From positions 1,731,828-1,795,827 of the forward strand of contig CBDBCA010000006.1 of the NCBI GenBank assembly GCA_965202835.1: DNA of 64,000 bases. The letters are read 5' to 3'. The position numbers and the translations under genes are program-made. Positions 4,791 through 31,971 of the stretch are shown here, in pieces; the stretch's first letter is position 1, and every line of letters begins with the position of its first letter. The notes below the pieces were generated by a model that saw only the letters and a list, made by a program, of their open reading frames with translations, had not been told where the DNA came from and did not search any database. The DNA is from Alphaproteobacteria bacterium. Lineage in GTDB: Bacteria > Pseudomonadota > Alphaproteobacteria > MPNO01.

Positions 4791-4845
4791 CGGGCCAATT
4801 TAGCCTGAGATGCCGGAAGGCCCGCGCATTCGTCGACACCCCCGC

Positions 4846-5864: not shown

Positions 5865-5961
5865 TGACCGACTCTCCTCCCCGCGCTGAACCGGGATGGT
5901 CGTTCCCGACGCCGCTCCCTGTCAATGCGCCCCGTAGTCCGATTGCCGCTATACTGCCGAC

Positions 5962-7337: not shown

Positions 7338-8372
7338 ATGAAGACCCTTGCAAAGACCGCGCTACCGCTGGGCGCCGCGAGCCTGCTCTTCGCCGCGATG
7401 CCGGCGCAGGCCGAGACGAAAATTCTGTTCAACTATTTCGTGCCGCCCAAGCACCCGCTCAAGGTGGGCGTCATCGACAACTGGTCGAAGCGAGTCACCG
7501 AGGCCAGCAAGGGCCGCATCAAGGTGAGCTACCCCGCCAAGACGCTGGCACCGGCGCCGCGCCAGTGGAAGATGGTGACGTCCGGGATCGCCGATGCGAC
7601 CGTGATGTACAACAATTTCGAGCGCAAGCGGCTCTCGCTCGACCAGGTGGGCACGCTGCCCTTCAGCATCACCGACGCGTCCTCGACGGCGACGGCGCTG
7701 TGGCGCACCCACAAGAAATATTTCGAAGCCAAGAACCAGTACAACGGCGTCAAGTTCCTCGGCTACGTCATGCACGGGGGCGGTGTATTTTTCAGCCTCA
7801 AGAACCCCATCACCTCCGTTGCCGACCTGAAGAAGATGAAAATGAGGGTTCCCCCGGGCGATGTGGCCAAGTCGATCGCCAGGACCGGGGCGGCGGTGGT
7901 GCCGACGCCGGGCGTCAAGGCGTTCGACGTGGTCTCCAAGGGGATCGTCGACGGGCTGATCTTCCCCATCGGCGATGTCGAGAAGCTCAAGATGACACCC
8001 TACGTCAAGCACCTCACCAAGGTGCCGGGCAAGGTCTACGGAGCGGTGTTCTCGCTCTACATGAACCAGAAGGTCTGGAACAAGCTGTCGAAGGAAGACA
8101 AGGCGGTCGTCGACGCGGCGTCAGGCGAGAAGATATCGATGGACTCCAATAACTGGGGCAATTTCGACATCGAGGCCGAGAAGATCTACCGCAAGAGGGG
8201 GATCGGTATTCACGAAGCCAGCGCGGAGTTCACCGCGGACCTCAAGAAGCTCTGGGCGTACCAGGACGAGGCGTGGATCGAGACGGCCAACAAGGCGGGC
8301 GTCGACGGACGGGCCGCGCTTGACTTCTACCGCGCCGAATCGAAGAGGATCTACAAGGCCACCCAGAACTAG
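7338..8372 (+). CDS. dctP: TRAP transporter substrate-binding protein (DctP family)
   Basis: Start MKTLAKTALPLGAASLLFAAMPAQA (signal peptide) inside long ORF 5925..8372. GGGAGG ribosome-binding site upstream. DctP-like. Confidence 0.85.
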   Translation: MKTLAKTALPLGAASLLFAAMPAQAETKILFNYFVPPKHPLKVGVIDNWSKRVTEASKGRIKVSYPAKTLAPAPRQWKMVTSGIADATVMYNNFERKRLSLDQVGTLPFSITDASSTATALWRTHKKYFEAKNQYNGVKFLGYVMHGGGVFFSLKNPITSVADLKKMKMRVPPGDVAKSIARTGAAVVPTPGVKAFDVVSKGIVDGLIFPIGDVEKLKMTPYVKHLTKVPGKVYGAVFSLYMNQKVWNKLSKEDKAVVDAASGEKISMDSNNWGNFDIEAEKIYRKRGIGIHEASAEFTADLKKLWAYQDEAWIETANKAGVDGRAALDFYRAESKRIYKATQN

Positions 8373-8387
8373 AGCGGCTTCCGGCCG

Positions 8388-8906
8388 ATGTCTGAGGAAG
8401 GGAGCGGGCCGGACGCCGACGACGTCTGGCCCGACGGCCCCTTCGAAGCCGTCCTCATGGCGATCGTCGGGACGACGATCTTCCTGATGATGGCGATCAC
8501 CTTCGTCGACGTCGCCGGCCGGTACCTTTTCAACGCGCCGATCCCCGGCGGTTTCGAGCTCATCGAGTTCCTGATGCCGCTCTCGATCTTCGCCGGCCTG
8601 CCGATCATCACCCGGCGGCGGACGCATATCGTGGTCAGCATTCTCGACCGCTGGTTCCGCGGCGGGATCGGGGAGGTGCGACGGCTGATCGTCGACGGCG
8701 GGTCTCTCGCGGTCGTCGCCTTCATCGCGGAACGGATGTGGAGCCAAGGCGACGGCCTCGCGGAAGCGCAGATCGAGTCGGGCTATCTCGAATGGCCCGT
8801 TGCCCCCGCCGCCTATGCGATCAGCGTGCTCAGCGTCGTGACCTGCGTGGTTCTGGCCCTGATGCTGTTGCACGACGTGAAGGCGATGCTGGATCGGAGC
8901 TCGTGA
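8388..8906 (+). CDS. dctQ: TRAP transporter small permease (DctQ family)
   Basis: 172 aa with 4 predicted TM segments, located between dctP and dctM. Confidence 0.75.
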   Translation: MSEEGSGPDADDVWPDGPFEAVLMAIVGTTIFLMMAITFVDVAGRYLFNAPIPGGFELIEFLMPLSIFAGLPIITRRRTHIVVSILDRWFRGGIGEVRRLIVDGGSLAVVAFIAERMWSQGDGLAEAQIESGYLEWPVAPAAYAISVLSVVTCVVLALMLLHDVKAMLDRSS

Positions 8907-8919: not shown

Positions 8920-10215
8920 ATGACCGAATCGCTCATTGGGTTCGCGATCCTCCTGCTCATGGTCTTCCTGGGCTTTCCGCTCGGCTTCGCCATGGTGGCG
9001 GTGGGGTTCGTGGGGTTCGGGCTGGTGCGGGGCTGGGAGCCGGCGCTGGAGACGGTGGGTCAACTCATTCTCGATTTCGCGATGAGCTACTCCTTCTCGG
9101 TGCTGCCGCTGTTCGTGCTGATGGGAGCGTTCGTCTACCGGGCGGCACTGTCAGAAGACCTCTACGACGCCTCCAACGCCTGGCTGGGGCACTACAAGGG
9201 CGGGCTCGCGATGGCGACCGTCGCCGCCTGCGGCGGTTTCAGCGCGGTCTCGGGAAGCTCGGTGGCGACGGCCGCGACCATGGCCAAGGTCGCGATGCCG
9301 TCCATGCGGCGCTACCGCTACAACGAGAACCTCGCGGCCGGGACCATCGCCGCGGGCGGCACCATGGGCATCCTCATCCCGCCCAGCATCGCGCTCGTGA
9401 TCTACGGCATCATCGTCGAGGAGGATGTCGGCAAGCTTTTCATCGCCGGGATCGTTCCGGGGATCATCACCATCGCCCTCTACATATTCGTCATCAAGGT
9501 CCTGATCACCTTCCGCCCCTCGCTCGGCCCGCGCGGTCCTTGGACGCCGTGGAAGGAAAGGTTTTTCGCGCTGAAGGGCGTCTGGGGCATGATCGTCCTG
9601 TTCCTGCTGGTCCTGGGCGGCATCTATCTCGGCGTGTTCACGCCGACCGAGGCGGGAGGGATCGGCGCCGTCGGGGCCGTCGCCTTCGCCGTCTCGCGCA
9701 GGAAGATGGGCTGGCGGGGTTTCTGCGGCGCCTTGATCGAAGCCGGCCAGACCACTGCCATGGTGTTCAGCGTCGCTTTTGGCGCGATCATCCTGTCGAA
9801 CTTCATGAACATCTCGGGCATGCCCAACCAGATCGTCGATTGGGTCAATTCGCTCGAGATCGCGCCGATCACCGTGGTTCTGGTGATCTGCCTGATCTAC
9901 ATCGCGCTGGGCTGCGTCTTCGAAGGGATCGGGATGATCCTGCTGACGGTGCCGATCTTCTTCCCGGTGGTGCAGAGCCTGGGCTTCGACCTGATCTGGT
10001 TCGGCATCGTGGTCATCATGGTGACCGAGATCAGCCTGATCACGCCGCCCATCGGCATGAACGTGTTCGTGCTGAAGACGATCATGCCGGAAATGTCGCT
10101 ATGGGGCATTTTCGCCGGCATCAGCCCGTTTTTCGTGGCCGATATCGTCCGGCTGCTCCTGATCGTGTTCATCCCGGGGCTGACGCTCTATTTGCCCAGC
10201 CTGATGGGCGGGTAG
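8920..10215 (+). CDS. dctM: TRAP transporter large permease (DctM family)
   Basis: 431 aa, highly hydrophobic, DctM-like sequence throughout. Confidence 0.9.
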   Translation: MTESLIGFAILLLMVFLGFPLGFAMVAVGFVGFGLVRGWEPALETVGQLILDFAMSYSFSVLPLFVLMGAFVYRAALSEDLYDASNAWLGHYKGGLAMATVAACGGFSAVSGSSVATAATMAKVAMPSMRRYRYNENLAAGTIAAGGTMGILIPPSIALVIYGIIVEEDVGKLFIAGIVPGIITIALYIFVIKVLITFRPSLGPRGPWTPWKERFFALKGVWGMIVLFLLVLGGIYLGVFTPTEAGGIGAVGAVAFAVSRRKMGWRGFCGALIEAGQTTAMVFSVAFGAIILSNFMNISGMPNQIVDWVNSLEIAPITVVLVICLIYIALGCVFEGIGMILLTVPIFFPVVQSLGFDLIWFGIVVIMVTEISLITPPIGMNVFVLKTIMPEMSLWGIFAGISPFFVADIVRLLLIVFIPGLTLYLPSLMGG

Positions 10216-10224: not shown

Positions 10225-11814
10225 TCACCGGCCGGAAGCGCCGGTGACCTTCGCCATGATGGGGCCGGCATCCGCCGGGGCGGCCTCGCCGATCCAAGCG
10301 ACGTAGGCATCGGGCCGCACCAGGACGAGGCGCGCGCCGTAGCGGCCCGGTCCGTCCGGCGACGGATCTCGGACGGCCGTGAACGGGATGAACCGCCGCG
10401 CGGCGGCCCGCTCGAACCGCGCGACGGCATCGTCTCCGGCGTTCAGCGCGACCAGCGTAAATCCCCGCCCCAGCTCTTCGAAAACGTTGCGCTCCGAGGT
10501 CAGCCGCCACGGCGGCAGGTAGTGTCCCGGCCGGACTTTCTCGGTCAGCGAGCCGCTGGCCCCGGTCTTGCCGCCGGGCGGCCCTTCGATCACGGTCGAT
10601 CCCTCGTAGTGGGGCGCATAGCTGTTCAGGTGCCTATTCCCCGTCTGCGCATAGGCCTCCCAGCCTTGCGCGAATTCCGTCGCGTCGCGTTCGGGGTCAA
10701 TCCGGTCGAACAGGTCCCGGTCCTTGGCAATGCGGCTGTCGATGAATTCCCGCGCCGTGTCCCCGGCCACCGCCTGGCGTTCCTCGCTGTACGAATCGAG
10801 CAGCGCTTCGCCACCCCAGCCCCGCAACGCGGCGGCCAGCTTCCAGCCCAGATTGGCCGCGTCCTCGAACCCGGTGTTGAGACCGTACCCGCCATAGGGC
10901 GGATGGCTGTGCGCGGCGTCTCCGGCGATGAAGACGCGCCCCGCGCGGAACCGGTCGGCGATGGAGACGCGAAGGTCCCAGTAGCCGATATGATCGAAGC
11001 TGCAGTCGAATTCGAAGCCCGCGGATTCATGGAGCAGCGCGCGGACCCCCTCCTCGCTCCGTTCCATATCGCCGACGGGCGCGTGAAAAAACCAGCTCTC
11101 ATGCTCGTCGACACGGCCGAAGAACCGCCAGTACCCCTTCAGGTCCCGGTGCACGACCCGATAGATGTAAGCCGGAGGAAACCGCTTCAGCCTCTCGTTC
11201 AGCGCGGGCGAGCGAAACACGGTGAGCACCATCGTCTGCTCGTAATCGGTTCCGCTTGAGGTCAGGCCCGCGCTCTCGCGGACCACGGACCGGGTCCCGT
11301 CGCAGCCGACCACGAATGCCGCGTCGATCGTTTCGCGGCGCGCGCCCTCGCGGTCTGCGATTTCGACTTCGACGCCGTGCTCTGATTGCCGGATCGCCGC
11401 GGCGGACCGACCCGTCTTCACGCTCACGCAGGGAATCCCGCCCAGCCGGTCGCGCAGCACCTGTTCGGTAAGATATTGGGGCAGCCTCTCGCTGCGCTGG
11501 AAGTAATGCCGGTCGACCGCCGTCCTGTAGACGCCGCTGAACCAGTGCTCGCCCATCAGATCGCCGTAGGCGACGATGGAGTTGCCGGGATATCCGGGCC
11601 GGATCATCCGGCGCGACCGCAATTCGTCGGCGATACCCCAGGAATAGAAGATATCGAGGGTGCGCTGGGTGAGGTTCTGACCCTTGGGAATGCGGTGCGG
11701 CTCGGTCCGCCGCTCGATCACCGTACTGGGGATACCCCGCAGTCCGAGCTCGACGGCGAGTGCGAGCCCGACGGGCCCCCCACCGACGACGACGACGCCC
11801 CGATTTCCGGTCAT
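10225..11814 (-). CDS. FAD-dependent aromatic monooxygenase (PheA/TfdB/MhpA-type hydroxylase)
   Basis: N-terminal VVVVGGGPVGLALAVELGLRGIPSTVIER dinucleotide-binding fold. 529 aa. Sits 20 nt downstream of the ligB-like gene on the same strand. Confidence 0.85.
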   Translation of the reverse strand: MTGNRGVVVVGGGPVGLALAVELGLRGIPSTVIERRTEPHRIPKGQNLTQRTLDIFYSWGIADELRSRRMIRPGYPGNSIVAYGDLMGEHWFSGVYRTAVDRHYFQRSERLPQYLTEQVLRDRLGGIPCVSVKTGRSAAAIRQSEHGVEVEIADREGARRETIDAAFVVGCDGTRSVVRESAGLTSSGTDYEQTMVLTVFRSPALNERLKRFPPAYIYRVVHRDLKGYWRFFGRVDEHESWFFHAPVGDMERSEEGVRALLHESAGFEFDCSFDHIGYWDLRVSIADRFRAGRVFIAGDAAHSHPPYGGYGLNTGFEDAANLGWKLAAALRGWGGEALLDSYSEERQAVAGDTAREFIDSRIAKDRDLFDRIDPERDATEFAQGWEAYAQTGNRHLNSYAPHYEGSTVIEGPPGGKTGASGSLTEKVRPGHYLPPWRLTSERNVFEELGRGFTLVALNAGDDAVARFERAAARRFIPFTAVRDPSPDGPGRYGARLVLVRPDAYVAWIGEAAPADAGPIMAKVTGASGR

Positions 11815-11834
11815 CTATCGAATGCGGCGCGGTG

Positions 11835-12845
11835 TCAGGTCCAGCAGACGAAGGCGTTGGCGGTTCCGGTCCCCGCCAGCGACCGGTAGCAGGGCACGTA
11901 GTCGATCACGTCGCCGTCGAGACGGGTGCCGAACAGGACGCCGGCCGCGACGATCCAGTTGCGAAGCTCGGACGAACCGGACTGGAGCAGGTCCTGCTCG
12001 ATACCGCACAGCCCCTCTTCGTCCCGGTCGCAGAACGCTTCGAGGAACCGCCGGTCGAGATCCTCGTCGATGCAGAAATGCGACATTCCGCCGGACCCGA
12101 CGACGGCCACCCGGGCCGGCGAATCCCAGTCGCGGATCGCGCGCCCGATCATCGTGCCGAAGTCAAAGCAACGCCGCGCGGTCGGCTGGTTCGGCGGGTA
12201 GAAGGTGTTGGAGATCACCGGCAGGGTGGGAACCGCGCGGTCGCGCATGATCCGGCGAAGGACGAAGCTGAACGCATGCGGGGTGCCGACATGGCGGTGG
12301 TTCTCGTGGCGGAGCCATTCATTCGACGCGGCGAGGTCGAACCCCTCCTCCATGGCGCGGGCGAACACGATTTCCGCGAGACCTGGCAAGCCGGGATAGA
12401 CCGTGTGCCGCTCCGGCCGGTAGGCCCATTCTGCATCGGCGACGCCGGGCGGCAGCTTGGCCTTCTGCTCCGCGCTGGTGGGCTGGTTGTAGAAGGTCTC
12501 GCCGCGATAGACGGTGAAGGTCGGCTGGATGTTCTCGAGAAACAGCTCGCGCTGGTCGTTGCCGAGGATGACGCAGGCATCGGGCGCCTCCTCTTCCCAC
12601 CTGTCGGCGAGCGCCTTGATGCCGCTCTGGCAGGCGTCGTAGCGCCGCCGGCGCTGGTCATCGGTGATCCACGCGGCAATGTCCTCCCCCGACCGCCGCT
12701 CGACCAGCTCGTCGAAGGTGAAGCGCTCGCCCTTGAACCAGTGCTCGTTCACCAGGTCGGCCTTGACGCGCTCGCCCCATTGGTCTGGCGTCGTGTTCAG
12801 AGTCGGCCCGTGGGTCGTCCACATGCCGAGAACGATTTCCGCCAT
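11835..12845 (-). CDS. class III extradiol ring-cleavage dioxygenase (LigB family)
   Basis: Real start is Met 197 of ORF 11835..13433 (MAEIVLGMWTTHGPTL..., ATG at 12845). LigB-family pattern, including GGMSHFCIDEDLD. The upstream 196 residues of the ORF are Arg/Gly-rich junk in the RraA gene's alternate frame. Confidence 0.8.
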   Translation of the reverse strand: MAEIVLGMWTTHGPTLNTTPDQWGERVKADLVNEHWFKGERFTFDELVERRSGEDIAAWITDDQRRRRYDACQSGIKALADRWEEEAPDACVILGNDQRELFLENIQPTFTVYRGETFYNQPTSAEQKAKLPPGVADAEWAYRPERHTVYPGLPGLAEIVFARAMEEGFDLAASNEWLRHENHRHVGTPHAFSFVLRRIMRDRAVPTLPVISNTFYPPNQPTARRCFDFGTMIGRAIRDWDSPARVAVVGSGGMSHFCIDEDLDRRFLEAFCDRDEEGLCGIEQDLLQSGSSELRNWIVAAGVLFGTRLDGDVIDYVPCYRSLAGTGTANAFVCWT

Positions 12846-13522
12846 CAATCGCCTCCACCGCGTTGCAGCATCGTTTCGTAGGACGCCCCCATGACGCGGC
12901 TGACCGGCTCGCCGCGCCTCACCGCCTCCGTCATCGCCCGTTCCCTGGCGACGATCGATTCGGCCTTGTCCAGCACGTCCTCCGCCCGGTCCCGCGGAAC
13001 CGCCGCTACGCCGCTGCGGTCGGCGATGATCAGGTCTCCGGGACGCACGGTCAATTCTCCGACGGCAATGTCGATATTGAAACCCTCTTCGTGAATCCGC
13101 CCGCGCGCCGTGCGCGCGGTCGCGCTTCGGCAGTAGACGGGAAAGCCGAGCTCGGCCGCCTCGTCGATGTCCCGTGCCGGCCCATCCACGATCACGCCTT
13201 CGATCCCGGCCGCCTGCGCCGCATTGGACAGCACCCCGCCCCACCCGGCCGCGTCGATGCCGGTGCGCTGTTCGATGACCAGAACCCGGCCCGGACCGGC
13301 CGAGTCCACCGCGCCGCTGCAGAGATGCCTTGCGGGAGCGTTCTCCGGTTTCCGGTCGGTCAGCTTGACCGTGACGGCCAGGCCGGCGACTCGCTTCGCC
13401 GTCGTCCGCGCCGCGATCCCGGTCACCGCGCAAGGCAGCCCGAGCGCATCCAGAGCGTCGGAAACCGCACAGCTATCGAGCTTCCCAAGTCGCGCGATCA
13501 GACGGGCGTCGTCATCGGTCAT
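12845..13522 (-). CDS. RraA-like protein (4-hydroxy-4-methyl-2-oxoglutarate / 4-carboxy-4-hydroxy-2-oxoadipate aldolase family)
   Basis: RraA/MenG-fold sequence (DSCAVSDALD..., GGVLSNAAQAAGIEGVIVDG). Its stop overlaps the ligB start as TGATG, indicating translational coupling. Its 5' end overlaps the dppF 3' end. Confidence 0.8.
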   Translation of the reverse strand: MTDDDARLIARLGKLDSCAVSDALDALGLPCAVTGIAARTTAKRVAGLAVTVKLTDRKPENAPARHLCSGAVDSAGPGRVLVIEQRTGIDAAGWGGVLSNAAQAAGIEGVIVDGPARDIDEAAELGFPVYCRSATARTARGRIHEEGFNIDIAVGELTVRPGDLIIADRSGVAAVPRDRAEDVLDKAESIVARERAMTEAVRRGEPVSRVMGASYETMLQRGGGD

Positions 13523-14510
13523 GGCTTGTCCCATGGTACAGGTGGCATTCGACGAGGCCCGATGAATCCGTCACCGTCTCCGGCGCGGTCCCGCCGCAGA
13601 TGTCCCTGGCTTCGGGGCAGCGGGGATGGAAACGGCAACCGGATGGCGGATCGAGCGGGTCCGGGAATTCGCCGTCGAACGGTCCCGGCGGAAGGCCCAG
13701 CGATGGATCGGGCGTCAGGATCGAGCGAAGCAGGGTCTCGGTATAGGGATGCCGTGGATCCTCGAAGATCCTGCCGGTCTCTCCCAGCTCGACCAGTCGG
13801 CCGAGATACATCACCGCTACCCGGTCGGCGATGTGTTCCACGACGGCAAGGTCGTGGCTGACGAAAACGTAGGTCAGGTTGAGCGTGCGCCTCAGATCCA
13901 TCAGCAGGTTAAGGATCTGCGCCTGCACGGACACATCGAGGGCCGAGGTCGGTTCGTCGAAAATCACGATACCCGGCTCGATCGCGAGAGCGCGCGCGAT
14001 GGCGATCCGCTGGCGCTGGCCGCCGGAAAGCTGGTTCGGATAGGCGTGGAGAAGATGCGCGGGGAGCCCCACCAGCTCCATGATCTCGGCGATGCGGGAG
14101 CGGCGTTCCTCTTCCGAGCCGATACGGTGGACGGAGAGCGGCAGTCCGATGATCTGCCCCAGTGTCTTGCGCGGGTTCAGCGAGGAATAGGGATCCTGAA
14201 AGACCGGCTGGACACGCGCGGCGATCTCCGAACGGCCGACTTCCTCGATCGGCCGGCCGGCGAAGCGTATGGTCCCGGCGGAGGGCGGCAGAAGTCCGAG
14301 AAGCATGCGCGCGAGCGTCGTCTTGCCGCATCCCGATTCGCCGACGATCGCGAGCACTTCGCCCTCTCGCACCGCGAAAGACACATCGTCCACCGCGCGC
14401 AGCGTAGCGACGGCCTCGAACAAGCCCCGCCTGACCCTGAAGAGGCGAGTGACACGGTCGCATTCGAGGACCGGCGCCCAGTCCGCGGCGGCTCCGGGTA
14501 CGCTGCTCAT
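13512..14510 (-). CDS. ABC transporter ATP-binding protein (DppF/OppF-like)
   Basis: Walker A GESGCGKTT, signature LSGGQRQR, C-terminal oligopeptide-transporter-type extension. Start MSSVPG..., overlapping the dppD stop. Confidence 0.85.
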   Translation of the reverse strand: MSSVPGAAADWAPVLECDRVTRLFRVRRGLFEAVATLRAVDDVSFAVREGEVLAIVGESGCGKTTLARMLLGLLPPSAGTIRFAGRPIEEVGRSEIAARVQPVFQDPYSSLNPRKTLGQIIGLPLSVHRIGSEEERRSRIAEIMELVGLPAHLLHAYPNQLSGGQRQRIAIARALAIEPGIVIFDEPTSALDVSVQAQILNLLMDLRRTLNLTYVFVSHDLAVVEHIADRVAVMYLGRLVELGETGRIFEDPRHPYTETLLRSILTPDPSLGLPPGPFDGEFPDPLDPPSGCRFHPRCPEARDICGGTAPETVTDSSGLVECHLYHGTSHDR

Positions 14511-15517
14511 GGCGGAACCGCCGCTCCCCGCAGTCGCTGGGCGGAATGGATGCATCGGTAAACGTGACCGCCCTCGATGATGCGTTCGTCATTGCCGCCG
14601 TCGCGGCATCTCTCGTCCGCCAGGGCGCACCTTGTGCGGAACATGCATCCCCGCATGTCTCCGATGAGGGAAGGAACGATACCCGGTATGGACCCGAGCG
14701 CGGTCCTGCGTTCCGTCTTGCCCGGATACGGAATGCAGTCGATCAGTCCCTGGGTGTAGGGGTGGGTGGGCGCTGCGAAGATCTGTCGGCTGGAGCCCGT
14801 CTCGACGATGCGCCCCGCGTACATCACGGCGATCCTGTCGGCGATCCGCGCGACGATCCCGAGATCGTGGGAGATCAGGATCAGCGCCATGTTGAATTCC
14901 GCCTGCAAATCCTTGAGCAGATGCAGGACCTGCGCCTGCACGGTGACGTCGAGCGCGGTGGTGGGTTCGTCCGCGACGATGAGGGCCGGATCGCACATCA
15001 GCGCCATCGCGATCATGATCCTCTGGCGCAGCCCGCCGGAAAGCTGGTGCGGGAACTGCCCGAGCCGCGTACTCGGATTGACGATTCCGACGCGGGCCAA
15101 CAGGTATTCGGCGCGCTCGCGCGCTTCGGCCCGGCCGCTTTGCCGGTGGCGGATGTAGATTTCCCCGAGCTGGTCTCCGATCGTGTAGACCGGGTTCAGC
15201 GACGTCATCGGGTCCTGAAATATCATCGCCATGCGGTTGCCGCGTATGGCGGAAAACGCCCTGTCGGAAAGCGACCGCAGATCGGTCTCCTCGAGGCTGA
15301 TTTCCTCCGCATGCAGCCTCGCGCGGCGGGGAAGCAGCCGCATGACCGCGAGCGCCGTCATCGTCTTGCCGCAGCCGGACTCGCCCACGATAGCCAGGGT
15401 TCGCCCGCGAATTGCCGACAGGTCGACATTTCTTACCGCGTGCAGCGTTCCGGACGGCACCGGAATGTCGACTCTGAGGTCGCGCACGCTCAGGATCGTG
15501 TCGCCCTCGCCGGTCAC
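14507..15517 (-). CDS. ABC transporter ATP-binding protein (DppD/OppD-like)
   Basis: C-terminal 336 aa of ORF 14507..16270 (ILSVRDLRV..., GESGCGKT, LSGGLRQR). Probable GTG start at 15517, overlapping the dppC stop as GTGA. The rest of the long ORF is out of frame over the permease gene. Confidence 0.85.
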   Translation of the reverse strand: MTGEGDTILSVRDLRVDIPVPSGTLHAVRNVDLSAIRGRTLAIVGESGCGKTMTALAVMRLLPRRARLHAEEISLEETDLRSLSDRAFSAIRGNRMAMIFQDPMTSLNPVYTIGDQLGEIYIRHRQSGRAEARERAEYLLARVGIVNPSTRLGQFPHQLSGGLRQRIMIAMALMCDPALIVADEPTTALDVTVQAQVLHLLKDLQAEFNMALILISHDLGIVARIADRIAVMYAGRIVETGSSRQIFAAPTHPYTQGLIDCIPYPGKTERRTALGSIPGIVPSLIGDMRGCMFRTRCALADERCRDGGNDERIIEGGHVYRCIHSAQRLRGAAVPP

Positions 15518-16416
15518 CGGCCGCGTCCCTCGGGCACGGTGATGTCTCGGATGCCGTCGCCCATCAGGTTGATCGCGATCACGAGGAAGAACAGGGCGAG
15601 CCCCGGCAGCGCGATCAGGTAGGGCTTGAAGAACATGAAGTTCCGCCCCTCGGAAATCAGCAGACCCCAGGACGGCGTCGGAGGCTGGATCCCGAGGCCG
15701 AGGAACGACAACACCGCTTCCACCAGAATGGCGATCGCCATTTCGAGGCTGGCGATGACGATGATGTGACTCATGACGTTGGGCAGGATCTCGCGGAACA
15801 CGATGCGCGCGTGCGACGCGCCGACCGCCTCGGCCGCGGTGACGAATTCCTGTCCCCTGATCTGCTGGGTAACGCTGCGGGAAACCACCGCGAAGCGGTC
15901 CCAGAACAGGAACCCGAGAATGGCGATCAGCGCGATCAGGGAGCCGCCGAACACCGAGACCAGGGAAAGCGCGATCAGGATGCCCGGAAGCGCAAGCTTG
16001 ACATTGATCAGGTACATCACGAAGGCATCGACGCGGCCTCCGAAATAGCCGCCGATTATTCCTATCGTCGATCCCACCACGCCGGAAATGATGGCGGCGC
16101 CGAACCCGATCATGAGGGAAATCCGCGCGCCGAACAAAATGCGCGTCAGGTAGTCCCGGCCGAGCGAGTCGGTGCCGAGCGGATGCGCCCAGCTTCCGCC
16201 CTTTCCCCAGATGGGGTTGAGCAGCCGGGCGTCCAGGTTCTGCGTAAAGGGATCGGACGGCGCGACCCAAGGCGCGAAAACCGCCAGCAAGACGACGGCA
16301 AGCACGAACCCGGCCCCGGACAGGAACCCGACATGGCTCCGCGCGCGGCGCCGCATGATTTCCGCCGGCGCCGGGGCGTCGACCTGGAATTCGTCCGCGA
16401 ACAATCCGCCTGCCAT
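15514..16416 (-). CDS. ABC transporter permease (DppC/OppC-like)
   Basis: 300 aa with the BPD_transp_1 permease pattern. Confidence 0.85.
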   Translation of the reverse strand: MAGGLFADEFQVDAPAPAEIMRRRARSHVGFLSGAGFVLAVVLLAVFAPWVAPSDPFTQNLDARLLNPIWGKGGSWAHPLGTDSLGRDYLTRILFGARISLMIGFGAAIISGVVGSTIGIIGGYFGGRVDAFVMYLINVKLALPGILIALSLVSVFGGSLIALIAILGFLFWDRFAVVSRSVTQQIRGQEFVTAAEAVGASHARIVFREILPNVMSHIIVIASLEMAIAILVEAVLSFLGLGIQPPTPSWGLLISEGRNFMFFKPYLIALPGLALFFLVIAINLMGDGIRDITVPEGRGR

Positions 16417-16499
16417 CGCCCGCCTAGCTCATCGTTTCGTGCTGCGGTGTGGGGTGGAATCCGGCGCCGCCGGTCCCGTGCCGTCGACCAACCCAACGC

Positions 16500-16587
16500 T
16501 GTCACCCCGGACTTCTTCCGGGGTCCAGCTAAACCGGGCGAAGGCGGTGCGGGCGGCCCTGGACTTCGGAACAAGTCCGGGGTGACA
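16500..16587. repeat. REP-like double-palindrome element, copy 2 (intra-operonic, between dppB and dppC)
   Basis: Left arm tgtcaccccggacttcttccggggtccag, spacer, then ctggacttcggaacaagtccggggtgaca. Same architecture as the copy at 4846..4933. Confidence 0.8.
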
Positions 16588-16709
16588 ATCGGAGGGAAAG
16601 ACACGGCGCAGGCTGCACCGAACCGCTCCGCGATGGGAGAAACGTCTGTGGCCCTGCCACTGTCGTGTGTTCGTCATCTACCGCCGCGACTCCTTGCGAG
16701 AGATCCTGC

Positions 16710-17627
16710 CTATCCGAGCCTTATTCGAGGATCGAGGCGGGCGTTGATCAGGTCCGATGCCAAGGTGAGCACGATATAGGCGAGGGACACGAAGACGAGG
16801 ATCGACTGCACGACCGGGAAGTCGCTGCGCAGGATCGATTCATAGGCCAGCAGGCCGATACCGTTGAGCGCGAAGACGGTCTCGACGATCACCGACCCGC
16901 CAAGCAGGAAGCCCAGCGAAACGGCGGAAAGGGAGACCACCGGAAGGATCGCGTTCCGGAGTGCGTGCTTGAAGAAGATCGCCCCCGGGCCGAGCCCCTT
17001 GGCGCGCGCGGTGCGGATGAAGTCGGCTTCCAGCACCTCCAGCATTCCGGTCCGGGTGAGCCGCATCAGCGCCGGCATCACCGCCGTGCCAAGCGCGACG
17101 GTCGGCAGGATGAAATGGGCGAAGCTGGACGAGCCCGAAATCGGCAGCCACCGCAACACCACGCCGAACAGGTAGATCAGAATCAGCCCGAACCAGAAAT
17201 TCGGGATCGCCTGCCCGAACACCGCGACGCCGAGCGCTGCCCGGTCGATCGACGTGTTGGCCCTGATCGCCGCCAGCACCCCGAGCGGAATGGCGATCGC
17301 CAGCGCCAGTACGAGGGAATAGAGCGCGAGCAGGATCGTCACCTCGACCCGTTCGAGGATCAGGTCCATCACCGGCTCGTTGGTGAACAGCGACTGCCCC
17401 AGATCGCCGCCGAGCGCGTTCCCGGCCCAGGTCAGGTACTGTTCGTGCAGCGGCCTGTCGAGGCCGTAAAGCGCCGCGATCTCGGCGACCTCGGCGGGCG
17501 TCGCGTCCTCGCCGGCGAGGTCCGCCGCCAGGTCGCCGGACACGCGCAGAAGCGCGAACCCGATGATCGACACGGTGATCGCCACCAGCACCGCCACGCC
17601 CAGCCTCTGTACGAAGAAACGTCCCAC
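16710..17627 (-). CDS. ABC transporter permease (DppB/OppB-like)
   Basis: 305 aa. Typical DppB N-terminus MGRFFVQRLGVAVLV and a conserved permease core. Confidence 0.85.
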   Translation of the reverse strand: MGRFFVQRLGVAVLVAITVSIIGFALLRVSGDLAADLAGEDATPAEVAEIAALYGLDRPLHEQYLTWAGNALGGDLGQSLFTNEPVMDLILERVEVTILLALYSLVLALAIAIPLGVLAAIRANTSIDRAALGVAVFGQAIPNFWFGLILIYLFGVVLRWLPISGSSSFAHFILPTVALGTAVMPALMRLTRTGMLEVLEADFIRTARAKGLGPGAIFFKHALRNAILPVVSLSAVSLGFLLGGSVIVETVFALNGIGLLAYESILRSDFPVVQSILVFVSLAYIVLTLASDLINARLDPRIRLG

Positions 17628-17654
17628 CTTCGGCTCTCCGCCTAGCAGTGGCCC

Positions 17655-18668
17655 TCACACATCGAGCTTGAAGACGCGGCGGGCGTTGTCCGCGAGAATC
17701 TTTTCCTTGTCCGGGTCCGACAGCCAGTCGAACCCCTTGATGTGGTACGCGACATCGTCCATGTGCCGCCCGGTATCGGGGTTGACGGACGAACCGACGC
17801 CGGGGCATTCCGCGCCGAACAGGCACCGATCGACACCCGCGACCCGGATCAGCAATTCGATCGCGTCGGGCGTATAGAGGACCGTGTCGTAGTAGAGCCG
17901 CCGCATGCGCTGGCTGAAGCGTTCGGCCCCTTCGCGGCGCAGCGTGCCGGATTCGAAGCGACCGAGCTGATAGGGGATCGCCCCGCCGCCGTGGCTGACG
18001 ACGATCTTGAGGTCGGGGAAATCGTCGAGGACCTGGGAGTTGACCAGCCCGTAGACGGCTGTCGTCTCCTCGTTGATGAAGCGGAGCGAATAGGGTTCCC
18101 GTTCGGAGCGCGACCCTGTGCCGTGGATATGCGCCGGGACGTCGAGCTCGCACAGTTTCTCGTAGAGCGGATACCAGTAGCGGTCGCCGAGCGCCGGCGG
18201 ATGGACCCCGGTGTTCTCGTAGGGGTCGGGATTGAGCAGGCAGCCCTTGAAGCCGAGCTCCGACACGCAGCGCTCCAGTTCCCGGATCGCCATGTCGAGC
18301 GGCTCGCCGCAGGGTTGGGGAAGGCCGCCGATGCCGATGAACCGGTCCGGGTAGAGCCCGGTCTCCCGGTGAATCATGTTGTTGCATTCCTCGTGGAACC
18401 ACTGGACGAGCTTCGCGGGCTTCTCGGAATGCATCAGCTGGAAGGGACGCGGGGAGACGAGTTGCATGTCGGTCCCCAGCGCGTCGAGATAGTCCATGTG
18501 GCTGTGGCCGGAGCCCGGAAAATGCTTCTTCTCGACGGCTTCGCGGATGTCGTCGTCGCTGACATTGACCCGGCCGCGCCCGTGCGAGCCGCGATGCGAG
18601 ATCAGCGTCGCCTTGTAGGCCCACAACTCGGCGGGCGCGCTTACATGGGCGTGGCAATCGATGATCAT
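17655..18668 (-). CDS. amidohydrolase_2 family enzyme (ACMSD/LigJ/LigI-like hydratase, decarboxylase or lactonase)
   Basis: MIIDCHAHV... metal-binding start and an overall PF04909-like pattern. 337 aa. First gene of the minus-strand operon that continues into dppB. Confidence 0.8.
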   Translation of the reverse strand: MIIDCHAHVSAPAELWAYKATLISHRGSHGRGRVNVSDDDIREAVEKKHFPGSGHSHMDYLDALGTDMQLVSPRPFQLMHSEKPAKLVQWFHEECNNMIHRETGLYPDRFIGIGGLPQPCGEPLDMAIRELERCVSELGFKGCLLNPDPYENTGVHPPALGDRYWYPLYEKLCELDVPAHIHGTGSRSEREPYSLRFINEETTAVYGLVNSQVLDDFPDLKIVVSHGGGAIPYQLGRFESGTLRREGAERFSQRMRRLYYDTVLYTPDAIELLIRVAGVDRCLFGAECPGVGSSVNPDTGRHMDDVAYHIKGFDWLSDPDKEKILADNARRVFKLDV

Positions 18669-18800
18669 GTTCCCCTCCCCCCTTCCGCGTTATCCGCGGC
18701 GAGCGCCGGTACTATAGGGGAGTTGCGGCCGCGCCCAAATTTGCGCGGCCGTTCAGGGTGAAGGTCAGGTGGCTCGCTCGCCGACTCCTCCCTGCCTTCT

Positions 18801-18855: not shown

Positions 18856-19515
18856 TCAATCCACGAGTTCGTCGACGTTCTGACCGCGTTCGATCATGTA
18901 GGTCTGCTGGACGAATTCGACGCGCTTGTCGTCCGACTCCGCCATCAGCACGGTGAGCCCGTCCTCCTGGAGCTGGCGGATCGTCTCGCCGAGCTTGTCT
19001 CCCAGCCCGGGCGACAGGCCCTCGAACGGCTCGTCCAGCAGCAGGAGCTTCGTGCCGCTCATCAGCGAGCGGGCAAGCGCCGCCATCTTCTGCTGCCCGC
19101 CGCTCAGCATCGTTGCACGACGGCTCACCATCGGCACGAGGTCGGGCATTCGGTCGTAGATGTAGCGCAGCCGCTCCTCGGCGTTCTCCATCTTGGCCGC
19201 CCAGGCCGGCAGCAGGATGTTGTCCTCGACCGTCAGCGAGCCGATCAGGCGGCGATCCTCGGGCATGTAGCCGATGCCGCGCTGGGCCCGCATATGGCCC
19301 GGCACCTCGAGAAGGTTCTCGCCGTCGAGCTCGATGTCGCCGCCCACCACCGGCACGAGGCCCATGATGCTCTTGAGCGTCGTCGTCTTGCCGGCGCCGT
19401 TGCGGCCCACCAACGCGACCATTTCGCCCTCGGGTATGTCGAGGCTGATCCCGCGCAGGATCACGAAGGTCTTGATGGTGACCTTGATCTCGCCGAGCTT
19501 CAGCATGTCACTCAT
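18856..19515 (-). CDS. branched-chain-amino-acid-type ABC ATP-binding protein (LivF-like), operon 1
   Basis: Start MSDMLKLGEIK... (ATG at 19515; the ATGAGTGA overlaps the LivG stop). GRNGAGKTT and LSGGQQKM motifs. Confidence 0.85.
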   Translation of the reverse strand: MSDMLKLGEIKVTIKTFVILRGISLDIPEGEMVALVGRNGAGKTTTLKSIMGLVPVVGGDIELDGENLLEVPGHMRAQRGIGYMPEDRRLIGSLTVEDNILLPAWAAKMENAEERLRYIYDRMPDLVPMVSRRATMLSGGQQKMAALARSLMSGTKLLLLDEPFEGLSPGLGDKLGETIRQLQEDGLTVLMAESDDKRVEFVQQTYMIERGQNVDELVD

Positions 19516-20206
19516 GCCCCAGCACGGCGCGCCTGACCTCGGGCTGGGCCAGCACGCTCTCCGGCTCGCCGTCGGCGACCACCCGGCCGGTATCGAAGAC
19601 CAGGACCCGCTTCCCGTAGCGCTGGACGACATCCATGTCGTGCTCGACGAAGATCGTCGTGATATCGCCCTCCCGCAATACGGCCACCAGCGTGTCCATG
19701 ACCTGGAACTTGTCCTCGATGCTGACCCCGCTGGTCGGCTCGTCCATCACCAGCAGCGTCGGTTTGAGCGCGAACGAAAGCGCGATGTCGAGCAGCTTGC
19801 GCCCGCCCTCGGGAAGCTCGCCCACCGGCCGGTTTGCATAGGACTCGAGGCCGAACCGCTCGAGAATTTCCCACGCCTCCGTCTGCCAGGGATCGCGGTA
19901 GAGCGGCCTCCAGAACCCGCTCGATTCGCCCGCGGTGGCGGCGAGCGAGAGCAGGACGCCCTCGAAAACCGTCATGTTGGTGTAGAGCTGCGGGATCTGG
20001 AAGGAGCGCGCGACGCCGCGCTTGGCCAGCTCTCGCGGCGCGAGATCGGTGGTGTCCTGCCCCATCACCATGATGCGCCCGCTCTCCGGCTTGAGGTAGC
20101 CGGTGATCAGGTTGAGGAAGGTCGTCTTGCCGGACCCGTTGGCGCCGACGATCCCGACCAACTCGCCGTTATCGACCTCGATGTTCAGGTCGTCGGCGGC
20201 GACCAC
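19508..20206 (-). CDS. LivG-like ABC ATP-binding protein, operon 1 (5' end uncertain)
   Basis: GANGSGKTT and LDEPTSGVS motifs. The nearest start is the GTG at 20206, but the conserved LivG N-terminus (ITESTPILQTVAINRTFGAV) continues in frame upstream to about 20263 with no ATG, GTG or TTG. Confidence 0.75.
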   Translation of the reverse strand: MVAADDLNIEVDNGELVGIVGANGSGKTTFLNLITGYLKPESGRIMVMGQDTTDLAPRELAKRGVARSFQIPQLYTNMTVFEGVLLSLAATAGESSGFWRPLYRDPWQTEAWEILERFGLESYANRPVGELPEGGRKLLDIALSFALKPTLLVMDEPTSGVSIEDKFQVMDTLVAVLREGDITTIFVEHDMDVVQRYGKRVLVFDTGRVVADGEPESVLAQPEVRRAVLGHE

Positions 20207-20255
20207 CGCGCCGAATGTGCGGTTGATCGCGACGGTCTGGAGAATGGGCGTCGAT

Positions 20256-21233
20256 TCAGTGATGGTCGCCCCCCCTGTCCTTGCCGGTGATCCGGGCCTC
20301 GATCCGCTGATAGATCGCCCACAGCCCGCCCGGCTGGAACAGGATGATCAGCAGCATGATGATGCCCATCATCATCTGCCAGGCGAGCGGGAAGTACTTG
20401 GACGCGTAGGTCTGGAGGAATTCGAAGACCAGCGCGCCCAGCATGGGCCCGGGCACGCCGCCGAACCCGCCGAGCAGCGCGACGAAGACGAATTCGCCCG
20501 ACTGGATCCAGAAGGCGTCCTCCGGGACGATGTGGCCGATGGTGAATGCCGCCATCACGCCCGCCACCCCGCCCAGCGTGCCGGCGAGGAGATAGGTCCG
20601 GTAGACGACCTGGCGGACCGCGACGCCGGAATATTCGATGCGGATCTCGTTGTCGTACATCGCGCGCAGGAAATACCCGGCCGGCGAGGCCATGAAACGG
20701 TAGACCACGAGCGTCACGATACCGACCATCGTAAGGGCGAAATAGTAGTAGCCGTAGCTGTCGCTCGGCAGGGTGATCCCGGCGAGCGTCGCGGTGCCGA
20801 TCGCCAGCCCGTCGGTGCCGCCGGTGATCCAGTACAACTTGAGCAGGGCGCCGAAAAGCATCATCGAAAACGCGAGGTTCAGCATCGCGAAGAAGACCTC
20901 GCGGTAGCGCGCCATGACGATCCCGACCAGCGCGGCCATGATGAAACCCGCGAGCGCGCCGAGCGGAATCAGGAAGAGCAACTCCCGGACGCCGAGCCAC
21001 TTGATGCAGAAGCCGACCGCATAGGCGCCGGTCGCGTAGTAGAGCGCGTGGCCGAAGGTGAGCAACCCGCCGCGCAGCAGGACCGAAACCCCCATGACGG
21101 CGATGAACATGAACATCGCCTTGGTCAGAACGAACAAGATCCAGCCCGGCAGAAACGGCGGCACCAGGATCAGCAACGCCGCCGCGACGACGCCGGCGCG
21201 CGGCAGGGCTCTCCAGTCCATCCAGTTCATCAT
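20256..21233 (-). CDS. LivM-like ABC permease, operon 1
   Basis: Real start MMNWMDW... (ATG at 21233; the ATGATGA overlaps the LivH stop). The N-terminal 134 aa of the ORF are junk. Confidence 0.85.
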   Translation of the reverse strand: MMNWMDWRALPRAGVVAAALLILVPPFLPGWILFVLTKAMFMFIAVMGVSVLLRGGLLTFGHALYYATGAYAVGFCIKWLGVRELLFLIPLGALAGFIMAALVGIVMARYREVFFAMLNLAFSMMLFGALLKLYWITGGTDGLAIGTATLAGITLPSDSYGYYYFALTMVGIVTLVVYRFMASPAGYFLRAMYDNEIRIEYSGVAVRQVVYRTYLLAGTLGGVAGVMAAFTIGHIVPEDAFWIQSGEFVFVALLGGFGGVPGPMLGALVFEFLQTYASKYFPLAWQMMMGIIMLLIILFQPGGLWAIYQRIEARITGKDRGGDHH

Positions 21234-22126
21234 ATCCTTCGGAGCTCCGCTTCGCCGAAGAGTCCTTCGGGCCGGATCACCAGTACCAGGATCATGATCA
21301 GATAGACCACCATGAGCTCGACCTCGGGGGCGAGATGGATCGCGAGAGCCCGCGCGAAGCTCACGATGACCGCGCCGACCGCCGCGCCCTCGATGCTGCC
21401 CATCCCGCCGATGGCGATGACCGCGAAGGCAAGCACGACGACCTCGAGCGCGAATTGCGGGACGACGGCGATCTTGGGCGCGACGAACGCGCCTCCGAGC
21501 GCCGCGGCCAGCGCTCCCACCGTGAAGGCCACCGTGAAGACCAGGTTGACGTTGATGCCGATGGCCTGGCTGACCTCGCGGTCGTGAATCACCGCGATGA
21601 CGAGCTTGCCGAACCGGGTCGCGCGCACCATCCACACCAGCGCCCCGCCGAAAACCACCGAGACCCCGACCAGGACGAAGTCGTACCAGGGATAGATGAT
21701 CCCGCCGACCTTGAACCTGCCGAGCATCGAATAGGGCTCCGAGATGAACAGCGGCTCCATCCCCCAGATCAGCTTCATGCTGTCATCCAGGATCAGAAGG
21801 ATCGAGAAAGTAAGCAGCAGCTGGATATGCATGTCGCTGCCGTAGATCCGGCGCAACAGCAGTCGTTCGATGATCGGCCCGGCCAGGAAGCCGATGATCA
21901 CGGCGCCCAGCAGCAGCATCAGATAGGTCAGCACCGGCGGCAGGTCGGCGTCAAGCACCAGGAGCGCGAGCCAGGTGCCCATATAGGCGCCGAGGGCATA
22001 GATGCCGCCATGCGAGACGTTGAGGATCCGCATGACGCCGAAGACGACGGTCAACCCGACCGACAGCAGGAACAGCGTCGCCGCATAGTTGATCGCGTCG
22101 AAGACGATGATCGTGAGAAGGTTCAT
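21230..22126 (-). CDS. LivH-like ABC permease, operon 1
   Basis: 298 aa, LivH-like (LLSVGLTVVFGVMRILNVSHG). Confidence 0.85.
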   Translation of the reverse strand: MNLLTIIVFDAINYAATLFLLSVGLTVVFGVMRILNVSHGGIYALGAYMGTWLALLVLDADLPPVLTYLMLLLGAVIIGFLAGPIIERLLLRRIYGSDMHIQLLLTFSILLILDDSMKLIWGMEPLFISEPYSMLGRFKVGGIIYPWYDFVLVGVSVVFGGALVWMVRATRFGKLVIAVIHDREVSQAIGINVNLVFTVAFTVGALAAALGGAFVAPKIAVVPQFALEVVVLAFAVIAIGGMGSIEGAAVGAVIVSFARALAIHLAPEVELMVVYLIMILVLVIRPEGLFGEAELRRI

Positions 22127-22233
22127 TCCGCGCCCGACCCCTGCCGCCTGTCCCGGAACGGCCGTCCGAACCGGGCCGCGAGGGGGGCGTTACCCCCCTC
22201 GCGCTTTGGTTCGGTTGGCCCCGAAACGGCCGG

Positions 22234-23505: not shown

Positions 23506-23658
23506 GACGGACCTCCCTTTCCGTAGGGCTCCGCGCGACCGTAATTCACCGTTATTCGCGGCCGTTCGCGGACGGTTTATCGAAAACCGACTGAAACGGT
23601 AGCACAAAGGAATCCCGATCGAAAGCGCCCGGAAGCAGGCCGCCCGGCGGCAACCGGA

Positions 23659-25097: not shown

Positions 25098-25102
25098 CGG
25101 CC

Positions 25103-31923: not shown

Positions 31924-31971
31924 CGAGAACCTCCCTTGGATTTCCTGCAAGAATAGTCGCGTTCGGCGACA

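Follow-up and report, generated by a model that had tools for sequence, protein, structure and literature searches.

The stretch of DNA analysed here, hereafter the window, comprises 64,000 nucleotides of contig CBDBCA010000006.1 from an alphaproteobacterial genome assembly (GCA_965202835.1). Its subject is a minus-strand operon at 10225-18668 that combines aromatic ring-cleavage genes with those of an ATP-binding cassette (ABC) importer, together with the block of oxygenase and transport genes that lies next to it. Genes were called from third-position GC and from Pfam and NCBIfam scans, gene junctions were read directly from the sequence, and about 45 of the roughly 53 called genes were scanned for domains. 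The GC content of the window is 63-71%. The operon contains eight genes, transcribed in the order Amidohydro_2 (ligY-like), dppB, dppC, dppD, dppF, RraA-like, LigB-type dioxygenase, and FAD monooxygenase (Table 1). A preliminary description of this DNA, made from the letters alone, had reported this gene set, order and strand as well as a repeat element, and all of them are found where it placed them. Its count of nine genes included the repeat element alongside the eight genes.

Direct reading of the junctions agreed with the compact layout that had been described for most of the operon. Stop and start codons overlap as GTGA at dppC/dppD, as ATGA at dppD/dppF, and as TGATG at rraA/ligB. The start of rraA (13534 or 13522) lies 11 or 23 nt inside the 3' end of dppF, whose stop codon occupies 13512-13514. 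The intergenic gaps measure 27 nt between the amidohydrolase gene and dppB and 20 nt between ligB and the FAD monooxygenase gene, within the maximum of 28 nt given earlier, whereas the 293 nt that separate dppB from dppC exceed it. As had also been described, the operon itself carries no gene for a substrate-binding protein (SBP). The single family-5 SBP gene identified by Pfam (SBP5) lies on the other strand, with the Rieske oxygenase and the dctPQM genes of a tripartite ATP-independent periplasmic (TRAP) transporter in between.

A megablast of the operon against plasmids returned only short matches to ABC and amidohydrolase genes. A plasmid origin was rejected, the window being chromosomal DNA of a Defluviicoccus-type metagenome-assembled genome (MAG). 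Scanning reference genomes with the dioxygenase yielded 23 loci (numbered here with the prefix L); the closest share 90-96% identity and belong to MAGs that carry the label Defluviicoccus sp. or Alphaproteobacteria bacterium.

Table 1 Features of the window discussed in the text, with functions as predicted from domains and homology
Feature	Position	Strand	Remarks
Promoter-like site before SBP5	3178-3207	+	TTGTCG-18 nt-TATAGT; consensus scan
Family-5 SBP (SBP5)	3261-4790	+	PF00496 (SBP_bac_5), E 1.5e-75; Sec signal peptide
Repeat copy A	4812-4933		Intergenic, between SBP5 and unk298; TGTCACCCCGGACTT termini
298-aa protein (unk298)	4968-5864	-	NMT1/THI5/SsuA (periplasmic-binding-protein) fold; no Pfam match
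LigXa-like Rieske oxygenase	5962-7236	+	Rieske and LigXa_C (PF19301)
TRAP dctP	7338-8372	+	Pfam DctP
TRAP dctQ	8388-8906	+	Pfam DctQ
TRAP dctM	8920-10215	+	431-aa membrane open reading frame
FAD monooxygenase (group-A aromatic, RebC/PRK06126-like)	10225-11814	-	FAD_binding_3, E 2.8e-72, and Rng_hyd_C; last gene of the operon
LigZ-like class III (LigB-type) extradiol dioxygenase	11835-12845	-	LigB, PF02900
RraA-fold protein (HMG/CHA-aldolase superfamily, uncharacterised subfamily)	12845-13534	-	PF03737
dppF-type ABC ATPase	13512-14510	-	ABC_tran and oligo_HPY
dppD-type ABC ATPase	14507-15517	-	ABC_tran and oligo_HPY
dppC-type permease	15514-16416	-	BPD_transp_1 and OppC_N
dppB-dppC insertion, about 281 bp	16427-16707		Repeat copy B 16466-16587; terminator-like hairpin 16620-16604
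dppB-type permease	16710-17627	-	BPD_transp_1 and BPD_transp_1_N
LigY-like Zn amidohydrolase	17655-18668	-	Amidohydro_2; first gene of the operon
Promoter-like site before ligY	18711-18738	-	TTGGGC-16 nt-TATAGT, 42 nt before ATG; scores under the scan threshold
tRNA-Pro (CGG)	40683-40759	+	Only Rfam or ARAGORN match in the whole window

The gene content of the operon provided insights into the compound that it may process. 5,5'-Dehydrodivanillate (DDVA) is a model of the 5-5' biphenyl linkage, which is among the hardest lignin bonds to break, and to our knowledge its catabolism is known in detail from one sphingomonad only. The amidohydrolase encoded by the first gene of the operon aligned over its full length (residues 1-337 against 1-332) with the structures of LigY from this pathway (PDB 5VN5/6E6I, E 2.5e-143), and its global identity to LigY of Sphingobium SYK-6 is 64%. 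Alignment showed that H6, H8, R72, H179, Y190, H223, R234, and E282 of LigY, which we take to be its active-site positions, are conserved in 8 of 8 cases, and the residues found there are consistent with that assignment. The next-best solved relative was LigJ, a 4-oxalomesaconate hydratase (E 8e-59), while LigI was not among the PDB matches. The protein had earlier been labelled LigJ/LigI-like, a label that gives way to a closer one. Judged by alignment, it is a LigY ortholog, the predicted Zn-dependent C-C hydrolase of the OH-DDVA meta-cleavage product.

As a proxy for the SYK-6 cluster we used L024, the contig of a 90% cluster representative found with SYK-6 LigY as the query, whose own LigY is 90% identical to that of SYK-6. 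The gene order of this contig runs from a TonB receptor to a LigB-family gene, two RraA-like genes, LigY, LigXa on the opposite strand, and, further along, a major facilitator superfamily (MFS) gene. This order agrees with the published SYK-6 numbering (ddvT 07650, ligZ 07720, ligY 07750, ligXa 07770). The dioxygenase of the window is 54% identical to LigZ of this contig. Among its approximately 2,900 database homologs, those that carry JGI names are called OH-DDVA oxygenase (LigZ), including the nearest of them (69% identity). We therefore place the enzyme, by way of the proxy contig, as a putative member in the LigZ (OH-DDVA dioxygenase) family. Its AF2 model (pLDDT 90.7) retrieved LigAB beta, DesB, MhpB, and aminophenol dioxygenase as the top Foldseek folds, and by this model the protein is an aromatic ring-cleaving member of the LigB superfamily. 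The preliminary description had proposed a structure-based classification of the dioxygenase and had named a non-aromatic LigB subfamily as an outcome that would speak against an uptake-plus-meta-cleavage module for a hydroxylated aromatic. The predicted structure falls among the aromatic ring-cleaving enzymes, and the idea of such a module is supported.

The metal site of the dioxygenase displayed an unusual feature. An invariant Gln occupies the second iron ligand position of LigB (His61, within an NDH motif), as part of the sequence N96-D97-Q98-x-E100. The NDQxE pattern was found in 34/34 aligned LigZ-like sequences and takes the form DDQHE in L041, a locus described below, while H12, H190, H256, and E293 are retained. 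LigZ-like proteins may thus have a metal site unlike those of LigAB and DesB.

The Rieske protein encoded beside the operon is 59% identical over 423 aa to LigXa of L024, and we infer that it is the oxygenase component of a LigXa-like O-demethylase. Meanwhile, the RraA-like protein shares 51% identity with the first RraA-like protein of L024, encoded directly after ligZ, and 33% with the second. Both TIGR02798 (78.9 bits against a cutoff of 304.5) and the aldolase structure PDB 3NOJ match this protein. Its R121-D122 pair aligns with R123-D124 of the aldolase, and the position of Asp102 is taken by Gly. This residue, G100, lies in a WGG motif shared by the window protein and its L024 ortholog, as against WGD or FGD in HMG/CHA aldolases, and the second L024 paralog keeps the Asp. 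The two RraA-like paralogs of sphingomonads may work as a hetero-oligomer, of which the window would encode the Gly type only.

The RraA-like gene had been taken as a departure from the LigK class II aldolase expected of a protocatechuate-type route. This contrast fails because LigK-type aldolases are themselves RraA-fold proteins, as the matches to TIGR02798 and 3NOJ show. Nor is the composition of the operon atypical, since RraA-like genes are regular members of ligZ-ligY clusters, those of SYK-6 type included. The trio of LigB, RraA, and Amidohydro_2 genes occurred in four further unrelated contexts, with an MFS gene nearby in two of them and a Dpp-type importer in none. MFS genes were present in L024, L027, L033, and L034. 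Because the trio recurs and RraA-like genes sit between ligZ and ligY in L024 as well, the enzyme set represents the normal core of a LigZ/LigY-type module. The reported lack of a LigC-type dehydrogenase holds for the operon (Pfam) and loses its meaning as an anomaly, because such an enzyme is not expected in a hydrolytic LigY route.

The transport genes embedded in the operon encode two BPD_transp_1 permeases, one of them with OppC_N, and two oligo_HPY ATPases. Together with SBP5, a secreted SBP_bac_5 protein whose Sec signal peptide ends after ALA and before QKS, they form the full set of an importer. SBP5 did not reach the cutoff of any NCBIfam peptide, nickel, or opine model, and for the SBP, permeases and ATPases all equivalog models remained under cutoff (Opp2B 294.9 vs 350, NikA 155 vs 393, DppA 94 vs 1005). 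The genes ligY-dppBCDF-(rraA)-ligZ are contiguous on one strand in 15 of the 23 genome loci, down to 69% LigZ identity. At L016, L017, L019, and L020 the order is Rieske(-) unk298(+) SBP5(-) followed by ligY(+) dppBCDF ligZ, and at these four loci and at L037 SBP5 adjoins ligY on the opposite strand. Two copies of SBP5 stand next to ligY in L012, and three in L021. In the sub-lineage of the window, the block of Rieske, unk298, and SBP5 genes lies at the opposite end of the operon, past the genes for the FAD monooxygenase and the TRAP transporter.

Two naturally occurring deletions divide these genes further. Locus L008 has lost ligY-dppBCD, with a remnant of the 3' end of dppF (its C-terminal part) left behind, along with the Rieske (ligXa)-unk298-SBP5 block, and it keeps rraA-ligZ-FAD monooxygenase-TRAP. 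Locus L002 is devoid of both the FAD monooxygenase and the TRAP genes. On account of these deletions we distinguish three units, namely ligXa, unk298, SBP5, ligY, and dppBCDF; the FAD monooxygenase and TRAP genes; and a shared rraA-ligZ pair.

A scan of metagenomes with SBP5 showed how closely this protein follows the lig genes. Neighbours of LigZ, LigY, LigXa, or unk298 type were present at 7/9 loci whose SBP was at least 45% identical to SBP5, and the other two loci are contigs of 3.5 kb or less. Below 45% identity a lig-type neighbour was found at 1/71 loci (a weak Rieske match), with 42 of the 71 on contigs of at least 8 kb, and the examples listed among these distant loci are ordinary SBP-dppBCDF operons. 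The same association was observed in an unrelated organism of 50% GC (L041), in a different order: LigZ (45%), two LigXa-type genes, Amidohydro_2, MFS, MarR, SBP5 (49%), dppFDCB (63-70%), GntR, LigY (73%), RraA-like (53%), and LigXa (60%). Thus, at least two unrelated lineages combine the SBP5 clade with ligXa, ligZ, and ligY. Based on the neighbour counts and the arrangement of L041, the link between this SBP/Dpp clade and lig genes is specific and recurrent.

We further infer that SBP5 is the cognate, conserved SBP of the dppBCDF importer. The earlier portrayal of a Dpp-like importer without its own SBP is accurate for the operon taken by itself and does not extend to the locus, where linkage and joint loss mark SBP5 as the conserved partner. 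As to what is carried, we tentatively propose, at slightly less than even odds, that SBP5 and DppBCDF form a dedicated ATP-driven importer for a lignin biaryl dicarboxylate, DDVA or a close analog. Such a system would be without precedent as an ABC importer of lignin dimers and would bring aromatic-acid specificity into the peptide/opine (PepT) family.

The FAD monooxygenase scored 359 bits with NCBIfam PRK06126, which is under the cutoff. Its best solved relative was RebC (E 7.6e-57), and 2-hydroxybiphenyl 3-monooxygenase was matched at E about 1e-29. The gene follows ligZ in L001-L013 except L002. The TRAP genes lie downstream of ligXa on the same strand. L002 and the L016-L020 group have lig genes and no TRAP genes. 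A PDB search with the TRAP SBP gave only unnamed or generic DctP entries, with no clue to the ligand. Since the FAD monooxygenase and TRAP genes are absent together in L002 and retained together in L008, they constitute an accessory unit that is gained or lost as a whole between relatives.

The 298-aa protein encoded between SBP5 and the Rieske oxygenase is cytoplasmic and had no sequence match in Pfam or PDB. It belongs to a large family whose members from different phyla are about 65% identical. Its AF2 model (pLDDT 79) retrieved 3IX1, SsuA, and Thi5 as top Foldseek matches, and DszB, a 2'-hydroxybiphenyl-2-sulfinate desulfinase, was also matched. Residues C68, C74, H75, H86, H125, and H129 are invariant. 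Wherever a relative has the Rieske and SBP5 genes, this gene adjoins them; distant members of the family do not adjoin Rieske genes. No similarity was found between this protein and the uncharacterised gene beside ligXa in L024.

In SYK-6, DDVA is taken up through DdvT, a TonB-dependent receptor, and DdvK, an MFS transporter, with the MarR regulator DdvR in control, and this uptake limits DDVA conversion (PMC6874591). Transfer of the DDVA pathway to Pseudomonas putida needed DdvK/DdvT and reached a yield of about 30% only (PMC12997858). The partners of SYK-6 LigXa are unlinked (SLG_08500, SLG_21200), and in the gene table of the same 2026 review ligXa, ligY, and ligZ are absent from the other two strains listed (PMC12997858). 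The cluster of the window resembles this system in LigY (64%), in LigXa and the putative LigZ (59% and 54%, both against the proxy contig), and in the RraA-like gene next to ligZ (51%). It differs in that no DdvK-type MFS transporter, DdvT-type TonB receptor, or DdvR-type MarR regulator was detected among the window genes scanned. Instead, a Dpp/Opp ABC importer stands between ligY and ligZ, and SBP5 in the ligXa block. The window also has one RraA-like gene rather than two, the FAD monooxygenase, TRAP, and NMT1-fold genes as extras, and a host that is a Rhodospirillales-type MAG and not a sphingomonad.

The importer itself shares with Dpp/Opp/Nik systems of the PepT family its two permeases, two oligo_HPY ATPases, and secreted SBP_bac_5. 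It departs from them in the separation of the SBP gene from the permease genes, in the tie of its SBP clade to lig genes, and in meeting no specificity cutoff. Lignin-derived aromatic acids are carried by ABC systems of Liv type and by TRAP systems, such as CouP and TarP of Rhodopseudomonas palustris. These resemble the present case in that SBP-dependent uptake is encoded beside aromatic catabolic genes, and Liv and TRAP genes also flank the cluster of the window; unlike them, the embedded importer is of the peptide/opine family. In the literature searched, neither an ABC transporter for DDVA nor a cluster of this type was reported, no specificity for lignin-derived aromatic acids was described in the PepT family, and nothing relevant appeared on SLG_07730/07740 or a CHPD hydratase. 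The enzymes appear to be new members of known families, and the new feature appears to be a PepT-family ABC importer in place of DdvK/DdvT.

Collectively, the computed observations at this locus are similarity at the level of orthology, conservation of residues, of gene linkage and of a promoter-like site, and the joint loss of genes. We estimate a probability of about 60% that the locus, in a Defluviicoccus-related, wastewater-type alphaproteobacterium, specifies a pathway of DDVA type for a 5,5'-biaryl dicarboxylate derived from lignin, together with an ABC system of its own for uptake. The route outlined here is a prediction as to all substrates, as to which way transport runs, and as to what the RraA-like protein and the FAD monooxygenase do. 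Secreted SBP5 would bind the biaryl acid in the periplasm and pass it on to the permease DppBC, for which the ATPases DppDF would supply the energy. The LigXa-like Rieske oxygenase, served by a ferredoxin and a reductase encoded elsewhere, would then remove one methyl group to create a catechol ring, which the LigZ-like extradiol dioxygenase would open. The LigY-like Zn hydrolase would cut the C-C bond, releasing a 5-carboxyvanillate-type monoaromatic acid and a CHPD-type C6 dienoate. Once hydrated, this C6 product may be processed by the RraA-fold protein, working as an aldolase or a decarboxylase; the activity of that protein is uncertain, with the Arg-Asp pair kept and Gly at the position of Asp102. 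The FAD monooxygenase and TRAP genes probably serve to supply a second hydroxylated aromatic for the same dioxygenase or to hydroxylate the monoaromatic product. Alternatively, the monooxygenase may form the catechol from a non-methoxylated analog.

Several observations weigh against this proposal. At identities of 51-64% to characterised enzymes, the compound actually processed could be another biaryl or some other bulky catechol. The assignment of the dioxygenase to LigZ passes through a proxy contig, in which the LigZ gene (7670-8665) is without five residues (SHFxI) of an otherwise invariant GGMSHF motif that aligns with the conserved GGMSH motif of LigB. This gap is either an assembly error or a real variant, and it weakens L024 as a LigZ reference. 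Some homologs of the dioxygenase bear the dual JGI name OH-DDVA oxygenase/3-O-methylgallate 3,4-dioxygenase. No LigXc ferredoxin or LigXd reductase was present among the genes scanned within about 47 kb, and no LigW-type decarboxylase among those scanned near the cluster (about 45/53). For the two LigXa partners this absence says little, as they are unlinked in SYK-6 too. In four sampled distant lineages, the trio was found with no Rieske gene within 9-10 kb, and LigZ of L008 must serve a route that does not depend on LigY or use a ligY encoded elsewhere. As for uptake, we know of no Dpp/Opp family member that carries aromatic acids. In addition, the terminator-like hairpin in the insertion between dppB and dppC could weaken expression of the downstream genes.

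Among the alternatives, the one that fares best keeps the chemistry and changes the substrate to one that is not a 5,5'-biaryl, for example a bulky substituted catechol of plant or wastewater origin, which the FAD monooxygenase would form from a precursor brought in through the ABC or TRAP system. The modest identity to the SYK-6 enzymes would fit such a substrate, as would the attachment of the FAD monooxygenase gene to ligZ in most relatives, which has no counterpart within 10 kb of the SYK-6-like cluster. Transporter type and regulator content also differ from those of SYK-6, the Defluviicoccus-type MAG lineage is not known for lignin catabolism, and our literature search found no specific link between the two. 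Against this stand the joint conservation of LigXa, LigZ, and LigY with an RraA-like gene, the conservation of all LigY residues checked, and the expectation that LigXa_C-type Rieske oxygenases at 59% identity would usually keep their substrate class. We regard a non-biaryl substrate as unlikely.

Slightly less likely is a variant of the gallate/3-O-methylgallate/protocatechuate 4,5-cleavage pathway, the type of route with which the preliminary description had found the enzyme set consistent. Here, the FAD monooxygenase would make a gallate-type substrate for a DesZ/GalA-like dioxygenase, a LigJ-like hydratase, and a LigK/GalC-like RraA aldolase. A dioxygenase, a hydratase, and an aldolase would form a complete lower pathway, and this fits the dual LigZ/3-O-methylgallate names, the rank of LigJ as second-best solved relative of the amidohydrolase, and the Arg-Asp pair of the CHA aldolase kept in the RraA-like protein. 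It also fits the retention of rraA-ligZ-FAD monooxygenase-TRAP without ligY in L008 and the lineages that have the trio and no Rieske gene. The locus does share its superfamilies (LigB-type, Amidohydro_2, RraA-fold) with the known protocatechuate and gallate systems (LigAB-LigC-LigI-LigJ-LigK; GalA-GalD-GalB-GalC). Unlike them, it has no pathway-specific NCBIfam match at cutoff and no LigC or LigI. The models for LigAB (PRK13372, 47.2 bits vs 837) and gallate dioxygenase (PRK13367, 24.3 vs 412) fell far under cutoff, as did the LigK model mentioned above. The amidohydrolase matches LigY with an E value about 85 orders of magnitude better than LigJ, and the LigXa ortholog is linked, conserved with ligY and lost with it. 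The SYK-6-type DDVA cluster moreover has the same set of ligZ-rraA-rraA-ligY-ligXa, and the DDVA-type route accounts for the locus better than the one first described.

It is very unlikely that dppBCDF and SBP5 encode a conventional importer of peptides, nickel, or opines that happens to lie inside the cluster while the aromatic enters by TRAP or an unlinked transporter. In favour of this reading, all characterised relatives of the SBP and permeases carry peptides, nickel, glutathione, heme, or opines, TRAP is co-oriented with ligXa, three Liv-type ABC systems lie just upstream, and the known DDVA uptake relies on an MFS transporter and a TonB-dependent receptor (PMC6874591). Against it, the importer genes stand between ligY and ligZ with overlapping codons and are kept to 69% LigZ identity, SBP5 and dppBCDF were lost with ligY and ligXa in L008, the SBP clade of at least 45% identity accompanies lig genes (7/9 loci vs 1/71 for more distant homologs) and keeps this association under a different gene order in the 50%-GC organism, TRAP is missing in L002 and the L016-L020 group despite their lig genes, and the equivalog models for peptides, nickel, and opines all stay under cutoff.

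The insertion between dppB and dppC is flanked by a TAGGC direct repeat (16708-16712 and 16422-16426). It contains a palindrome of 88 nt with TGTCACCCCGGACTT termini and 29-nt inverted arms that are 90% complementary. The terminus has 4 matches in the window against 0.08 expected by chance, and the two repeat copies of the window are both intergenic. The insertion is missing from every related locus that aligns across the dppB-dppC junction, and in L005, read directly, the dppB stop lies 8 nt from the dppC start. While the RNA fold of the whole insertion is ordinary (z -1.43), its central palindrome is strong. Being palindromic, intergenic, multi-copy, and variable between strains, the repeat has the properties of repetitive extragenic palindromes (REP) and miniature inverted-repeat transposable elements (MITE). 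Because it is absent from all junction-aligning relatives, the insertion looks like a strain-specific, recent MITE-like event that broke a tight dppB-dppC junction. A partial copy of the repeat was observed in L011 near 17941-17983.

Upstream of ligY, the sequence TTGGCC...CCTATAGTACC is kept in 8 relatives, while the sequence further upstream is unrelated. This pattern argues for a promoter specific to the operon rather than read-through from the adjacent Liv genes. Read-through from the Liv operon into ligY was considered and disfavoured, given that the Liv genes are kept only in close relatives, that GC-rich hairpins follow livF, and that ligY has a promoter-like site of its own. Upstream of SBP5, a CCTATAGT element is kept in L004, L005, and L009, with a CCTATAAT variant in L012. 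The region before the LigXa-like gene (5920-5961) displayed a conserved CTGTCAA(T/C)GC motif and a CGCTATACT element. In most close relatives the latter ends about 6 nt before the ATG, a position that suggests a leaderless transcript or one with a very short leader, and possibly a regulator site. A search for an operator common to the three upstream regions found only -10-like TATAGT/TATACT elements to be shared.

Directly upstream of ligY, three consecutive minus-strand ABC sets of Liv type (branched-chain/aromatic-acid family) occupy 18856-35537, and the nearest of them adjoins ligY in close relatives only. Within this region (27117-30526), a DDE_Tnp_1_4 transposase gene on the plus strand (27847-29493) splits a Peripla_BP_6 (Liv-type) SBP gene into a C-terminal piece at 27117-27833 and an N-terminal piece at 29627-30526. 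The transposase stretch has the highest GC content of the window (71%). A 103-nt stretch of a NUDIX hydrolase gene is duplicated at 30561-30663 and 36794-36896 with 83% identity, the intergenic copy lying beside the split SBP gene, and it is probably a gene fragment left by rearrangement. Other loci carry a Meth_synt_2 gene (cobalamin-independent methionine synthase-like) near ligY, at 14707-15843 in L024 and at 11753-12874 in L032, where it directly follows ligY. None was found among the window genes scanned. This protein may be a methyl-transfer partner in the L024 and L032 lineages.

Based on these findings, the cluster suggests that the DDVA pathway is spread more widely in uncultured Alphaproteobacteria and other lineages, and that a high-affinity, SBP-dependent ABC importer of the peptide/opine family has been recruited for it. 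If this is true, the importer would offer a new uptake part for lignin valorisation strains and would extend the ligands of family-5 SBPs to a new class. Candidates for the pathway steps that follow C-C hydrolysis, such as CHPD processing, which are unassigned in the literature searched, would then be found in the RraA-like and NMT1-fold proteins. Should the substrate prove to be a different one, the locus would still illustrate clearly how one transporter can replace another while the LigZ-RraA-LigY core is conserved.

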